From: Rhodothermales bacterium
Lineage (GTDB): Bacteria; Bacteroidota; Rhodothermia; Rhodothermales; Bin80
Length of the DNA: 64,000 nt
Direction: 5' to 3'
Assembly: GCA_965261255.1 (NCBI GenBank)
Contig: CBDHCQ010000004.1
Span: 3,150,604 to 3,214,603 of the forward strand
Of this stretch, positions 3,101 to 50,709 are shown piece after piece. The stretch's first letter is position 1. Each line of letters begins with the position of its first letter. The notes beneath the pieces were generated by a model, which saw only the letters and a list, made by a program, of their open reading frames with translations, had not been told where the DNA came from and did not search any database. The translations under genes and the position numbers were made by a program.

Positions 3101-3370
3101 TTACATTTCTGCCTGATGCTCACCAAACCGGACGTGCAGTTTTTCCACACCCAGCCTTTGAACATAATCCCGTTTTCGCCCACGGAAGCCTCTTGGTTTG
3201 GGTGTTCCCCCTAATTCCTGCATAAGACGACTGAGAATTACGAAGTTCTTCCTAATATCGGAACCGAGGTAGTACAGGATCTGATTCAACGAGATGGAAT
3301 TGATTGGTTTGTGGGTAGAGTACGCATGAAGGTCTTCACAGGGGTGGTTGATCCGAGTGTCTAGCGTCAA
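3101..3370 (-). pseudogene. Probable decayed 3' fragment of a tyrosine recombinase (phage-type integrase)
   Basis: 'RINHPCEDLHAYSTH...ISLNQILYYLGSDIRKNFVILSRL' aligns by position with integrase box I/II (HPHxLRHxxATH ... LxxIQxLLGHxxxxTTxIYxH). The catalytic R, H and Y are replaced and no N-terminal part exists. Confidence 0.35.
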
Positions 3371-3570
3371 CTAGAATTTAAGTTAACGCTAGACATACCG
3401 GATTGCGTCACTTCGACCATAATAGAGTACATCACTACGCCGGGCCCTTGATTTCGTATACGGTGAACGATCACGGCGCCACCTGCTTGATGTGGGTAGT
3501 GAGAACTGAGCATGTGTCTGCATGATTACGCATAACTCGGGGATCTGGTACAGAATGCCCGGTTTCAGGT

Positions 3571-46244: not shown

Positions 46245-46574
46245 TTGCTTAACGAACCGAAGACCTCCGGCGCTAATGCGTTGACTTTCGCATCTGTTGA
46301 AGTCCTTCCGGGCACTGGTCATGAACGACATAATCACCCCAATGCTGACGAGATTATTTATGTGGTGGAGGGAGAGGCCACGCAAATGCTGGATGATCGA
46401 AAACCGATCAGAATCGCCCAAGGCGCTTGCATCTTTGTTCCGCGAGGTGTCTACCATGGAACCGAGAATACGGAAACCTCTGTGCCCAAACTGATTGTCG
46501 TCTATGTGCCAGGGGGAGAGGAGTCTGTGCTAAGAAACCTGCCGGATGTAATTATGAGGGACCCGGTGGTATGA
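46245..46574 (+). pseudogene. Second cupin copy that has lost its start (ATG->GTG plus 1-nt deletion in an A-run); only a TTG start at 46245 remains
   Basis: Copy 1 'CAATGGAAAAAATCGG' versus copy 2 'CAGTGGAAGAATCGG'. The GTG frame hits TAA after 8 codons. The rest of the cupin frame is intact. Confidence 0.55.
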
Positions 46575-47195
46575 GCGTGTTGTCGAAAGACAACTCCAGA
46601 ATGTATCTGTGGATCCAGGAGGCGTTGAGAGTTACTCCTCTAGTGGAAATTTTTGCGAATGTGTCAGTAGACCCCGCGAGAGTGCAGTCCCCAAGTGATT
46701 TGTGAATTTATCCCTCAGGGTTATACGTATCGCCCGTAAATGAACCCACCAGCCATACCAGAGGGTATCTTTCGATATAACATGTATCACGAATCAATCA
46801 GTCTCTCAATCCTTGAAAAGGCTGGACCCTATTCCCAGTCTGTCATTACAGGATCCGGCTTTGAATTGGAGGACTTCGTTCTGGTGAAACCAAGCTTGCC
46901 CACCGAGGAGCATGTCGGGGGCAAGTTAACGAACCGGTTTCCCCGGAAGTGACGAATAGTACTACCAACAGCATACAGCAGAAGAAGCCAGTAACCACCT
47001 GGCACAGTAGATGATTGATGGCGAGCCGAACGTGACCGCCGAAGGTATTCAAGGCATTTGTGGAAGACGAATGCGTGTGGGCCCCCGCCCGAGGTTCCTT
47101 TCGTACTATGGCTACTGTTGAAGTAGTACGAGGAAGTTTCGGAGTTAAAGGAAAATTGTGGTATCGTAGGGAGTCCGCAGACTGCGTGCTTTGTG

Positions 47196-47633
47196 CTATC
47201 CGTCGTGGCCGTTGAATAGGTATTTGGAGAGCACACGAAGCGGAGTGTACATGGTACCAAACGCGGTACCAAGCATGGCAATTAGGACTCTATAGTCAAC
47301 GTCTATTCCTGGACTTTCTAACCCACTCTGATAAATGAGTACTGCCGTAAACCCCAACCATCCTAATGCCACCAGGCCTGAAATCCATGCAAAGGGAAGC
47401 CTGTATTTGTTTTTCTGATGTTCTTTCTTGGCTAATTCCGCTTCCCTGTCTGCCACAGCCCTTTCCTTCCTTAGCTGTATTTCGCCCCACTCAGATTCCT
47501 CATAATCGGAATCTTCGTCCTCGGCCACGTCCCAATTAATGTCCTCCCAGCGAAGGTCGCGCAGCAGGTCGCGTATACGCTGCGCTTCCTGACCGGGCGG
47601 GCCGACTGGCCCCATACCCGGCTTACTCTCCAT
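47196..47633 (-). CDS. Small protein with an acidic/charged N-terminal half and two C-terminal TM helices; candidate toxin/effector partner of the Panacea-domain protein
   Basis: 'DINWDVAEDEDSDYEESEWGE' acidic tract, then TM1 LPFAWISGLVALGWLGFTAVLIY and TM2 YRVLIAMLGTAFGTMYTPL. ATG 47633 overlaps the upstream stop by 11 nt and is preceded by GGCGAGGG. Alternative starts at 47675 and 47615. Confidence 0.6.
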   Translation of the reverse strand: MESKPGMGPVGPPGQEAQRIRDLLRDLRWEDINWDVAEDEDSDYEESEWGEIQLRKERAVADREAELAKKEHQKNKYRLPFAWISGLVALGWLGFTAVLIYQSGLESPGIDVDYRVLIAMLGTAFGTMYTPLRVLSKYLFNGHDG

Positions 47634-48081
47634 CCCTCGCCGCTCCGACCTTCTTTCGCTTCCTATACTCCTCAAGTATATCCTTTTCAGGAATCACGAC
47701 TCCCCTAGCACCAGTATAATTCTTCGCCCATGCGCCCCCTGTCCAATGCGTAATCCTTATCAGCTTTGAGGCCGATACCAACCCTAGTTCGCTGTAAACA
47801 GCTTCCAAAGTTGTCTTTTCAGTGCCAGGCTGCAACGGGTGTCTATTAAAACCTATACGGGTTATAGTGCTTGATCCGTAAACGCGAACTGCCTTGTATA
47901 GCACCGGGTGCACGGGACCGAATTCCCAAGCTTCAAAGTGCCCCCGAACAAGTGGCTTGTCGAAGTTTCCTAGGTGAACCATGTGAGCAAGATAAAGCAG
48001 CTTTTGGAGCTCAATCTGTGTAAGCGTCCAGTCAGATTCCTTGCACAAATGATTCGCAGCGTCAAGCACTGGTACAGCCAT
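47623..48081 (-). CDS. Panacea-domain (DUF4065 / SocA-GepA-like) protein; candidate antitoxin
   Basis: 'LTQIELQKLLYLAHMVHLGNFDKPLVRGHFEAWEFGPVHPVLYKAVRVYG...SASKLIRITHWTGGAW' follows the DUF4065 pattern (LQKLLYY...G.PLF...FEAW..GPV.P.VY...YG...L...TH...PW). Confidence 0.8.
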   Translation of the reverse strand: MAVPVLDAANHLCKESDWTLTQIELQKLLYLAHMVHLGNFDKPLVRGHFEAWEFGPVHPVLYKAVRVYGSSTITRIGFNRHPLQPGTEKTTLEAVYSELGLVSASKLIRITHWTGGAWAKNYTGARGVVIPEKDILEEYRKRKKVGAARDGE

Positions 48082-48101
48082 GTTGTCGTTCGCTAGTCTT
48101 C

Positions 48102-48137
48102 TTGCCGTATGATCGCCTTGGTGCGATTATACGGCAA
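48102..48137 (-). promoter_or_regulatory. Putative promoter/operator of the Panacea module: 36-bp palindrome overlapping a TATAAT box
   Basis: Minus strand reads TGAACA-N18-TATAAT. TTGCCGTAT...ATACGGCAA are perfect 9-bp outer arms, with inner ATCGC/GCGAT arms. Sits 21-56 nt upstream of the ATG at 48081. Confidence 0.5.
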
Positions 48138-48149
48138 ATATTGTGTAAT

Positions 48150-48815
48150 TGTTCACATGTTGCGAACAGAATCTGGATAAAGTTCCCTCGAAATCGAAAA
48201 GATATCCACAAAATCCCTCCACGAAATTGCCTTCGTTAGAAATTCCTCCCCCCAGCACAACCACGCGCGCCAGTGATTCTTTCGCCTCCTCTAACAGGCC
48301 GTCAGGACGACTCTTTTATATTTCATGCCAGGCACTCTGGTGCATGCGCGTCACCCGCAGCATACTCCCCCGATCCTCCTCATAGTCGGCAAAGGGACCA
48401 ATCTTGGCGTTGGCTGCGATCTCTGCACTTCATGCATGGGCTTCTGCGTGCGTGACAGCCATAACCGCGCCAACCAAGGCGCGCCCATGATTGCTGTTAT
48501 ACGGCAGTCCTATGGATATGAGGAGTGATCCCAGATTGGCGAATCCAAGCCCCAACGGTCGGAATCGGTGGCTATTGTGGGCAATCTGCGATCATATCCT
48601 CTTTTTTCATTCGCTCCATGAGCTCCTTACACATTCTCGCTAGGCAGAAGCGGGGACCAAAGCCTCCTAGGTCAGGCAGCAGAATCAATCAAGCGGTTGG
48701 GCAAATGCTTCACGCCATTCGAAATGGGTTCGGACACGATTTCACACCAACAAGGGACCTCGATATGGTCAAGTGGTTCAACGTAAATAGCTGCCTGCAA
48801 ATCTTCATACCTAGA
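48150..48815 (-). pseudogene. Decayed gene, possibly the PEP-hydrolase-like TIM-barrel partner usually paired with Tm-1-like/UPF0261 genes
   Basis: No minus-strand ORF of 60 aa or more. Fragments in three frames read '...[14 protein letters not shown]...GLPYNSNHG...', '...VTRMHQSAW...', '...ARVVVLGGGISNEGNF...'. These resemble IIYNSGRFRMAGRGSLAGL.PYGDAN / VAHMGLTTG / IVLCHGGPIA.PEDA as recalled from memory. Confidence 0.3.
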
Positions 48816-48873
48816 TAGAAGGATTCATTTTTGGGGATCTTACTTTGATCACAACCGAACTTCACAGCACCTC

Positions 48874-50709
48874 CTACCAGGCGATGCCATAATCATCACC
48901 GTGATCACTTGCACCGCCCCACATCGTGCCGTGCTTGCGGTCGAACTCAATAGCGGTGATCGGCCCGCTGGTACGCGAGCTGAAGGTTAATGTATAGTTC
49001 ATGTCGCGAAGCTCCCGGCGCACCCAATCAGATACTCCATTATGCAGCAAGAGACGTCCCGGACGAATCTCGTGTTCACCGAAGGATCCCCGCATCTGGA
49101 AGCTGTTGATATTGGCGGCTTCCACAGCCTCCTGCACATTCATATCAAACTCAACAACATTCAGGAAAAACTGGAGCAGATTCTGATCCTGGCTGTCCCC
49201 ACCCTGTACTGCAAACGATAGATAGGGGAGTCCATCTTTAAGTGCCATTCCTGGCGTGAGCGTCGCGCGCGGGCGCTTGCCCGGTTCAGGCAGGTTGTAT
49301 GGATTTTCCGCGGGATCCAGGACAAAGCTTTGCATGCGTTGGCTTAGACCAATACCCGTTTCGCCTGCGATAACTGCAGGAATCCAGCCACCACTCGGCG
49401 TGATGGACACCACCCAGCCTTCTGCATCTGCGGCCTGAATGGAAGTTGTTCCGGCATAAAAGTCTGACTCATAAGAAACATCACTGCCATATCCATCATC
49501 TATGTCTGCTGACCACTCCTCCAGGTAGTGCAGATACGGGTTCTCTTCTCCTTGAAATGGGTATGGATCCCCAGGTTTAACCGCAGGATCATTCGCTTCC
49601 CAATTGATTGTTTCCAGACGCTCCTTAGCGTAGGCCTTGGACAACAGACCCTCCATTGGCTCGGCAGGAGGGAAATAGGGATCGCCGTAATAGAAATCCC
49701 GATCAGCAAACGTCATGTTCATCACCTGATACAAGAGATGAATGTATCGTGTACTGTTGTAACCCATTCGTTGCAGATCCACGTTTTCGAGCATATTGAG
49801 TGCTTGAAGCATGACCGGTCCCTGTACCCAGGAAGTGAGCTTGTAGACCTGAATTCCTTTATAGTCTGTCACAACCGGTTCTTCAATGTAAACCTGCCAG
49901 CGATCCAGGTCTTCCATTGTGATCAACCCACCCTGTTCCTGGGTTCCACGTACAAGCTCCTCGGCGATATCGCCCCTGTAGAAACGGTCATAGGCGGCAT
50001 ATATCGCTTCCTTTCGTGATTTTCCTGCTTCAAGCGCGGTGGATTCTGCTTCAACAAGCTTTCGTAGCGTTTCTGCCAGATCGGATTGGACGAACAGCTG
50101 CCCCTCTCTCGGTGCCTGATTTTCATCCTCCCTGTTCGGCAGATAAACCAAATCAGAGTAAGGCCATTCAGCAATGCGTTCGGCGTGGCTTTCAATAGAA
50201 CGTACAGCTGATCGTTCAATCGGATATCCCTCGGCCATCTGGATGCTGGGCTCAAGGACATCTTTCAGGCTCAAGGTGCCGTACTCGGCTAGCATAACCA
50301 TCAATCCGCCGGGCGTACCAGGCGTGACCGCTGCCAGTGGGCCATATTCTGGAGGATAATTAAGCTCCTGATCCTTAAAGAAGTCGGTTGTGGCACCCGT
50401 TGGTGCTACTCCCAAGGCATTGATGCCGAGCACCTTTTTCTGATTGGGATCATATATAATTGCCTGTGTTTCTCCGCCCCAGCTCAGCACATCCCACATT
50501 GTGCTGGTTGCGCCCAGCATAGCACAGGCCGCATCAACGGCGTTACCTCCTCGCGCGAACATCATAGCCCCAGCAGTAGCCCCTAAGGGCTTTCCAGTAA
50601 TGGCGACCCAGTGACGGCCATGTAAAACAGGTTTGGCCGTGCGCTGTGCCTGCACAGGTAAAGCAATAGCACAGCATAGAGCGAGTAATTGTATGCGATA
50701 TGAGAGCAT
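48874..50709 (-). CDS. ggt: Gamma-glutamyltransferase-family protein (secreted)
   Basis: Signal peptide. 'GGNAVDAA', autoprocessing 'GTTSIQAAD', ~610 aa. Confidence 0.85.
   Translation of the reverse strand: MLSYRIQLLALCCAIALPVQAQRTAKPVLHGRHWVAITGKPLGATAGAMMFARGGNAVDAACAMLGATSTMWDVLSWGGETQAIIYDPNQKKVLGINALGVAPTGATTDFFKDQELNYPPEYGPLAAVTPGTPGGLMVMLAEYGTLSLKDVLEPSIQMAEGYPIERSAVRSIESHAERIAEWPYSDLVYLPNREDENQAPREGQLFVQSDLAETLRKLVEAESTALEAGKSRKEAIYAAYDRFYRGDIAEELVRGTQEQGGLITMEDLDRWQVYIEEPVVTDYKGIQVYKLTSWVQGPVMLQALNMLENVDLQRMGYNSTRYIHLLYQVMNMTFADRDFYYGDPYFPPAEPMEGLLSKAYAKERLETINWEANDPAVKPGDPYPFQGEENPYLHYLEEWSADIDDGYGSDVSYESDFYAGTTSIQAADAEGWVVSITPSGGWIPAVIAGETGIGLSQRMQSFVLDPAENPYNLPEPGKRPRATLTPGMALKDGLPYLSFAVQGGDSQDQNLLQFFLNVVEFDMNVQEAVEAANINSFQMRGSFGEHEIRPGRLLLHNGVSDWVRRELRDMNYTLTFSSRTSGPITAIEFDRKHGTMWGGASDHGDDYGIAW

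Follow-up and report, generated by a model that had tools for sequence, protein, structure and literature searches.

A likely PanA–PanT toxin–antitoxin cassette with a divergent T3-type membrane partner in Rhodothermales

Cluster T3 of the PanA–PanT toxin–antitoxin (TA) systems is large and phylogenetically broad, with members in Bacteroidetes, Proteobacteria, Deinococcus and other groups (Kurata et al. 2022, PNAS 119:e2102212119; PMC8832971). Its validated example comes from E. coli STEC O31 (PanA WP_000287252.1, PanT WP_000019185.1), in which PanA neutralises a toxin that depolarises and permeabilises the inner membrane, and the catalogued pairs include Niastella vici WP_081146124.1/WP_081146123.1 (PMC8832971). 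In the Dataset S1 rows examined, the PanAs that partner T3 toxins are all listed as 'noNTD' and are encoded antitoxin first (PMC8832971). Here we describe a two-gene locus of a Rhodothermales bacterium (assembly GCA_965261255.1), located in a 64,000-nt stretch of contig CBDHCQ010000004.1 (positions 3,150,604–3,214,603, forward strand; hereafter the window). We consider it likely that this locus is a chromosomal PanA–PanT cassette of the type that combines a stand-alone Panacea antitoxin with a T3 membrane toxin. Its main elements, in window coordinates, are as follows.

47623–48081, minus strand: panA, 152 aa, stand-alone Panacea (DUF4065) protein, antitoxin-like, without N-terminal helix-turn-helix (HTH) or PAD1 domain
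47196–47633, minus strand: panT-like gene, 145 aa from its ATG, placed by profile comparison as a divergent member of PanT cluster T3
47623–47633, minus strand: 11-nt overlap of the panA stop and the panT start, ATGGAGAGTAA, read from the sequence
47165–48225, minus strand: transferable cassette (promoter region, panA, panT and about 30 nt of 3' flank), delimited by blastn

Two linked genes in a mobile cassette

An earlier interpretation of this DNA, made from the letters alone (the sequence-only reading), had taken the first open reading frame (ORF) for a DUF4065/Panacea protein, and the profile search bears this out. PanA matches Pfam PF13274 SocA_Panacea well above the curated cutoff (E 2.2e-16, 61.2 bits against 25.7), with residues 25–118 covering model positions 1–112 of 113, and it matches phrog_1281 of PHROGs with an E-value of 5e-30. 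The NCBIfam SocA equivalog NF047745 also aligns to residues 13–144 (E 6.6e-29); the score of 100.8 bits lies below the 190-bit cutoff that, together with pairing with SocB, marks SocA proteins, and the partner protein shows no similarity to SocB in Pfam, NCBIfam, PADLOC and PHROGs scans. Panacea is the sole domain detected in PanA by Pfam and NCBIfam, with no DNA-binding domain of the HTH, ribbon-helix-helix, AbrB or PAD1 type. PanA is 31–35% identical to the PanAs of T3-type toxins in Niastella, Pontibacter, Deinococcus and Deianiraea. Judged by its sequence, it belongs to the Panacea family on two counts, a domain match above the curated threshold and a two-gene arrangement conserved across genomes.

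The second gene is rare: close homologues of PanT number 13 among 5.8 billion protein clusters, and the two that could be placed in genomes both come from Rhodothermales metagenome-assembled genomes (MAGs). In 7/7 Rhodothermales-type loci that have upstream sequence, the panT-like gene directly follows a Panacea gene, and the identical 11-nt overlap recurs in the homologous loci L001, L006, L015 and L017. The pair had been described beforehand as an antitoxin-first, overlapping two-gene module; this arrangement is conserved and is the one seen in known PanA–PanT systems. Its proposed corollary, that homologues of the two-helix protein should recur beside Panacea genes, also holds, both in these seven loci and in the four distant contexts described below.

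Both panA and panT are under purifying selection. The ratio of non-synonymous to synonymous substitution rates (dN/dS) is 0.15–0.17 for PanA against three orthologues and 0.10–0.31 for PanT overall. Within PanT, the N-terminal 52 residues evolve faster (dN/dS 0.26–0.57) than the C-terminal module (0.06–0.20), which may reflect co-evolution of specificity.

The cassette occurs in four unrelated gene neighbourhoods, as expected for a mobile TA module. In the window and L017, the cassette lies between gamma-glutamyltranspeptidase and cupin genes; L001–L005 and L007 carry sulfatase, 6PGD, nucleoside hydrolase and NAGPA genes; L006 and L008 carry TnpB, a group II intron reverse transcriptase, an AAA ATPase and HipA; and in L015 the neighbours are ferredoxin, DNA polymerase III delta and Der GTPase. 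By blastn, L015 is 87% identical to the window over 48216–47165, with a separate 36-nt match at 48250–48215 and different flanking genes, and the 87%-identical copy in L017 matches over 48225–47119. Similarity to these two copies covers about 48225–47165 and so includes the promoter region; for the more distant copies in L001, L004 and L006 it is limited to 48090–47195. DNA similarity is confined to the pair, together with the promoter region in the 87%-identical copies, which marks the locus as a discrete mobile unit of about 1.06 kb.

Some of the homologous loci have peculiarities of their own. In L008 (7427–8279) the cassette is broken, with PanA split into ORFs of 67 and 72 aa and the toxin reduced to a 63-aa C-terminal ORF; in L015 (5001–5633) the toxin is frameshifted, so that its last ~17 residues are replaced and a 210-aa product (P0003) results. 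These copies could be true inactivations or long-read assembly errors. In L006 (1–12402), from a Rhodothermales MAG, and likewise in L008, the cassette lies amid three TnpB/Cas12f-like genes, a group II intron reverse transcriptase, an AAA_15/AAA_21 ATPase accompanied by a small partner, and a HipA–HTH pair; this island is rich in mobile elements or TA/defence genes.

The partner protein and PanT cluster T3

The protein encoded by the second gene has the following parts.

47478–47525, minus strand: acidic tract, aa 37–52, within the variable N-terminal region; 9 of 16 residues are Asp or Glu, AEDEDSDYEESEWGEI
47406–47510, minus strand: predicted long charged helix, aa 42–76, running into the membrane segment (AlphaFold2, predicted local distance difference test score (pLDDT) 75–94)
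47328–47396, minus strand: predicted transmembrane helix 1, aa ~80–102 (hydropathy and AlphaFold2 helix 78–104)
47205–47294, minus strand: predicted second helix, moderately hydrophobic, aa 114–143 (AlphaFold2 helix 114–143; hydropathy ~1.0)

The first 76 residues of PanT contain 21 acidic and 13 basic residues. They are followed by one strong transmembrane segment at aa 82–100 (Kyte-Doolittle maximum 1.91) and a second, weaker hydrophobic helix at aa ~114–136 (Kyte-Doolittle ~1.0). The AlphaFold2 model built from the family alignment (mean pLDDT 78.7) contains helices 42–76, 78–104 and 114–143, and so predicts a long charged helix leading into a C-terminal helical hairpin. The 145-aa ORF with its 11-nt overlap, acidic tract and two hydrophobic helices was thus correctly perceived from the letters, and hydropathy and modelling likewise support the idea of a second gene with the architecture of a membrane-targeting toxin. 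An alternative TTG start at 47675 would give a 159-aa product; the ATG position is the start in most homologues. The long helix ends in the conserved E-x-QKN-x-YR, with E66, L67, K70, E71, Q73, K74, N75 and R78 invariant, W92 in transmembrane helix 1 is conserved, and the second-helix motif (V/L)(D/S)(Y/D)xVLIA(M/L)LGT...(K/N)YLF(N) is the most conserved stretch of the wider family.

Taken as a single sequence, PanT has no match in Pfam, NCBIfam, PADLOC or PHROGs. A sequence search of the PDB found no relative of either Panacea or PanT, and Foldseek of the PanT model against the PDB returned only meaningless matches (E > 5). A link to a wider family came from profiles only. Searched against 1.84 billion representatives at E <= 0.001, a profile built from the Rhodothermales panT clade alone retrieved 68 distant representative clusters of small proteins of ~100–160 aa, among which Niastella-type proteins matched at whole-library E-values of 4e-5 to 4e-4. 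The wider family shares a common layout: a variable, charged N-terminus precedes a conserved R-x-x-(F/Y)-(A/S), after which come a transmembrane helix with a Trp and, past a short loop, a second helix marked by LSDxVLIALLGTxxxNV...(K/N)YLF. A search with a broader alignment gave 126 proteins, none of them with a Pfam domain. A Panacea gene stands immediately upstream in 4/4 distant contexts, namely Deinococcus saxicola, Pontibacter silvestris, Niastella vici and Ca. Deianiraea vastatrix, and one distant relative (P0022) is called as a fusion of Panacea with the two-helix hairpin module.

Exact look-up identified two family members, P0149 and P0120, as WP_081146123.1 (Niastella vici) and WP_081164616.1 (N. 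populi). Both belong to PanT cluster T3 in Dataset S1 of Kurata et al. 2022, where their PanAs are recorded as 'noNTD', antitoxin first, with gaps of -1 and -4 nt (PMC8832971). The Niastella vici locus (assembly GCA_002077945.1) has the same -1 overlap as catalogued. Aligned by hhalign, the Rhodothermales clade (A3) and the Niastella clade (A5), which contains both catalogued proteins, match along all 70 residues of the hairpin module, and their motifs line up (95.9%, E 5e-9); identity over the aligned module is ~21%, within reach of profiles only. The features of T3 are found here in arrangement as well as in layout: panT directly follows a Panacea-only PanA, antitoxin before toxin, with an 11-nt overlap, and the charged N-terminal region (aa 1–76) is followed by helices 78–104 and 114–143. 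The sequence-only reading had proposed a PanA-like antitoxin with an unclassified membrane-active partner. The antitoxin-like and membrane architecture stands; the word unclassified does not, because hhalign places PanT with a clade that holds catalogued T3 members. By sequence comparison, the panT-like gene is a divergent, Rhodothermales-restricted member of the already catalogued T3 class and no new kind of toxin. The 2022 catalogue contains no member of the Rhodothermales panT clade, and the sole Rhodothermaceae entry found in it is a non-TA locus (PMC8832971). The PanA–T3 membrane-toxin family is now extended into Rhodothermales, and the case illustrates that a partner which looks like an orphan in single-sequence searches can be placed by profile searches and conserved gene linkage. 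The analysis shows the domain identity and family membership of the genes, their conserved linkage, the purifying selection on both and the mobility of the cassette.

Several points weigh against the assignment of the locus to a T3 toxin–antitoxin pair. The link from PanT to the validated E. coli STEC O31 toxin is transitive, through the cluster membership of the Niastella proteins, and T3 itself, drawn up by clustering guided by gene neighbourhood (PMC8832971), may be a heterogeneous group. Composition can inflate profile matches among short hydrophobic proteins. Kurata et al. 2022 validated some, not all, of their candidate pairs, and of the T3 toxins one, from Vibrio cholerae, is marked merely 'Toxic' and another 'stuck in cloning' (PMC8832971). 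The two-transmembrane topology of PanT is uncertain because its second helix is moderately hydrophobic (Kyte-Doolittle ~1.0). Finally, neither PanA nor PanT was matched in PADLOC-DB 2.0 at E-values up to 1, a result that bears equally on the defence function discussed below.

Further observations concern the wider family and possible links to other systems. P0014, a metagenomic protein of 302 aa, carries a hairpin module near-identical to that of the Rhodothermales clade, fused to an unrelated N-terminal region of ~200 aa that has no Pfam match, which suggests reuse of the membrane module together with different N-terminal domains. In the wider-family alignment A4, 20 of 59 members have weak Pfam matches to DUF2207_C (best E 1.7e-4), and two members each weakly match the SLATT_fungal, S_4TM and CyanoTRADDas_TM models (E 0.003–0.02); all of these matches probably reflect membrane-helix composition. 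A SLATT or S-4TM relationship of the PanT family was considered and rejected, as the 2/59 weak matches (E 0.003–0.01) are within membrane-helix noise. Searches of plasmids by tblastn gave no match for the two-helix protein. With PanA as query, an E. coli plasmid PanA (H2) was found and was discarded as a route to a validated toxin, its partner being an unrelated soluble protein. At this locus (L018 1453–2320, plasmid NZ_CP148433.1), a stand-alone Panacea gene is followed by a soluble partner of ~139 aa unrelated to the membrane toxin, and on a P. aeruginosa plasmid (L019) a stand-alone Panacea gene is followed by an ORF similar to that partner. These soluble partners illustrate partner swapping.

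Alternative functions, the promoter palindrome and the flanks

An account that overlaps with the toxin–antitoxin one, and does not exclude it, holds that the pair is mainly an anti-phage abortive-infection system, in which the Panacea protein would sense an infection cue and free the membrane toxin, so that the infected cell is killed or arrested. We regard this as rather unlikely. Membrane-disrupting effectors are common in abortive-infection systems, and the surroundings of the cassette in L006 and L008, with TnpB/IS605, group II intron reverse transcriptase, AAA_15/AAA_21 ATPase and HipA, are a typical mobile or defence-island setting. The neighbours in the window and in L001–L005, however, are housekeeping genes (gamma-glutamyltranspeptidase, RibBA, sulfatases, 6PGD) with no defence genes among them. 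Besides the lack of PADLOC matches for the pair itself, members of the wider family gave scattered weak matches only; the profiles of both clades found no relatives in IMG/VR viral contigs, and the PanAT papers examined contain no phage data for T3 systems. An abortive-infection role is thus possible but unsupported, with one of the four neighbourhoods looking like a mobile or defence island.

It is improbable, in our estimate, that PanT is a non-toxic small membrane protein, for instance an anchor or partner that localises the Panacea protein, so that the pairing would reflect a shared function outside toxin–antitoxin biology. Such a role would agree with the weak hydrophobicity of the second helix, with the many Panacea proteins found outside TA-like loci and with the ten further NetFlax candidates that were non-toxic in E. 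coli (PMC10440598). It is countered by the membership of the PanT family in a cluster with an experimentally validated toxic member, by the antitoxin-first order and overlapping genes, which are the T3 pattern, and by the mobility, patchy distribution and apparently disrupted copies (L008, L015) of the cassette, which are typical of TA modules.

The region upstream of panA contains three elements that bear on the regulation of the pair.

48126–48155, minus strand: promoter-like element TGAACA-N18-TATAAT, 10/12 consensus positions, by a consensus that may not be that of Rhodothermales
48102–48137, unstranded: 36-bp palindrome spanning the -10 hexamer, 15-nt arms (14/15 complementary) and 6-nt loop
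48150–48168, unstranded: small inverted repeat that overlaps the -35 hexamer, TGTTCGCA-ACA-TGTGAACA, 7/8 complementary

The promoter-like element and the palindrome had both been pointed out from the sequence, and the palindrome proves better than claimed. Promoter-like sites near the locus are not in excess (three found, 1.8 expected from shuffles); related cassettes keep both hexamer positions, as T(G/A)AAC(A/T) and TA(T/C)AA(C/T). Palindromes of this quality occur twice in the window, and any at all occurred in one of 30 Markov simulations; the other (3358–3395) has 15-nt arms with one mismatch and an 8-nt loop. The 36-bp palindrome is non-random and specific to this genome: it was seen in the window only and is absent from all seven homologous loci examined. 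Its left arm coincides with the conserved -10 region (TTGYCGTAYAAY), and its right arm is not conserved in L001, L004, L006, L008, L015 or L017, including the 87%-identical L015 and L017.

Autoregulation through promoter palindromes is the norm in classical type II TA operons, and it had been proposed on these grounds that PanA, or a PanA–PanT complex, acts on this palindrome as the operator of its own operon. The palindrome is statistically exceptional (the one simulation in 30) and overlaps the best promoter-like site; we nevertheless find the proposal improbable and do not retain it. The hypothesis is weak because the right arm is conserved in no homologous cassette, because PanA consists of the Panacea domain only, without HTH or PAD1, because the T3 partners in the rows examined are all listed as 'noNTD', and because the NetFlax authors argue that Panacea itself is probably no transcriptional autoregulator (Ernits et al. 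2023; PMC10440598). The hallmarks of classical autoregulated type II TA systems, namely a DNA-binding domain in the antitoxin and an operator palindrome conserved among orthologous loci, were not found here. The palindrome may have been acquired recently as a regulatory site; alternatively, quasi-palindrome template switching may have produced it, in which case it could have arisen without any function. If stand-alone PanA or the PanA–PanT complex did bind it, this would for the first time indicate that the Panacea domain itself binds DNA. The locus also cautions that even a striking palindrome at a promoter may not be a conserved operator.

The small inverted repeat is, with low confidence, a marginally better operator candidate than the large palindrome: it is fully complementary (8/8) in L015, less so in L017, L001 and L004, and missing from L006 and L008. 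A host-factor regulon for this repeat was rejected, as TGTTC-N9-GAACA does not recur elsewhere in the window. An RNA hairpin formed from the palindrome is unlikely because a transcript starting ~7 nt past TATAAT would lack the left arm, and an Rfam scan of 46500–48900 gave nothing meaningful. A plus-strand scan flagged the palindrome as terminator-like; this reading was rejected, since a terminator there would be antisense to panA and has no upstream plus-strand gene. It is very improbable that the palindrome is a recently evolved regulatory site or, alternatively, that the fast-evolving acidic N-terminus of PanT is a trigger-sensing surface that sets activation specificity.

The flanks of the cassette had been described as a decayed duplication and a decayed gene, between which the pair would sit in an AT-richer stretch. 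Both decayed elements are present, and the compositional difference is marginal at best (GC content 0.508 at the locus, 0.520 in the window). The direct duplication of ~1.1 kb (43474–~44330 and 45742–~46600, 90–93% identity) carries the C-terminal part of a UPF0261 gene and a cupin gene; the second duplicate is truncated, with UPF0261_C only (183 aa) and a cupin of 109 instead of 135 aa. On the other side, between the gamma-glutamyltranspeptidase gene and the cassette, upstream of panA, lies a ribonucleotide-reductase barrel fragment with in-frame stops (window 48180–48570, minus strand, within 48226–48809; PF02867 positions 280–356, E 3e-11). In the otherwise syntenic L017, 48226–48809 is replaced by 544 nt of unrelated sequence. 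The Deinococcus pair has an intact reductase gene upstream, which prompted us to consider the fragment as a part of the cassette; this was rejected, since the region shared with L015 and L017 does not include the fragment.

Proposed mechanism and comparison with described systems

By homology, a type II-like PanAT module is the most likely function of the pair. Toxicity, membrane target, direct neutralisation and co-transcription would be those expected from homologues and the literature. In such a module, panA and panT would be co-transcribed from the promoter-like element at 48126–48155, with translation coupled by the 11-nt overlap. PanT would have a cytosolic N-terminus, variable and acidic, followed by a long charged helix that leads to the C-terminal hairpin of two hydrophobic helices. 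Free PanT would insert in the inner membrane, probably as an oligomer, and dissipate the membrane potential or permeabilise the membrane, which would stop growth. PanA would neutralise it by direct protein–protein binding that blocks insertion or assembly of the hairpin, and PanT would be released upon loss of PanA or its inactivation by a trigger. The likely PanA contact is the cytosolic N-terminal or juxtamembrane segment of PanT, which is consistent with the layout of the protein and with the faster evolution of its N-terminus. The practical value of these assignments is modest and consists in better annotation for two hypothetical genes; as a divergent toxin/antitoxin pair, the locus is useful for comparing how stand-alone Panacea proteins recognise membrane toxins.

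SocA–SocB of Caulobacter crescentus is a type VI TA system in which SocA serves as a ClpXP adaptor for the toxin SocB. PanA shares the Panacea fold with SocA, as reflected in the match to the NCBIfam SocA model (E 6.6e-29). It differs in scoring 100.8 bits against the 190-bit cutoff and in having a membrane protein, not SocB, as its partner, and nothing suggests adaptor-mediated proteolysis. With HokB and TisB, and with two-transmembrane effector modules of conflict systems such as SLATT and S-4TM, the pair would share its expected outcome, in which a small helical membrane protein depolarises or permeabilises the membrane. The type I toxins HokB and TisB are much shorter and are neutralised by antisense RNA. 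As a phenotype, HokB was the comparator in Kurata et al. 2022 (PMC8832971).

A closer parallel for the mode of neutralisation is offered by the B. choladocola PanT(D11):PanA pair (Ernits et al. 2023, PNAS 120:e2305393120), in which a stand-alone Panacea protein directly neutralises a toxin with predicted transmembrane helices (PMC10440598). The contact, predicted and supported by mutagenesis, involves an unstructured N-terminus and a short helix before the transmembrane region of PanT(D11) (PMC10440598). By layout alone, the PanT described here is comparable, with a disordered acidic N-terminus, a helix and a membrane segment.

The closest described systems are the T3 PanA–PanT pairs of Kurata et al. 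2022. As in these, a stand-alone Panacea antitoxin ('noNTD') is encoded first and the genes abut or overlap; the putative toxin is small, with a charged N-terminal region and C-terminal membrane helices, and homology of its hairpin to catalogued members is detectable. The Rhodothermales clade differs from other T3 members in its motifs, VDYRVLIAMLGTAFGT and YLFNGHDG in place of LSDxVLIALxxTTTANV and YLFNKDKST, and in the unusually acidic N-terminus of its PanT.

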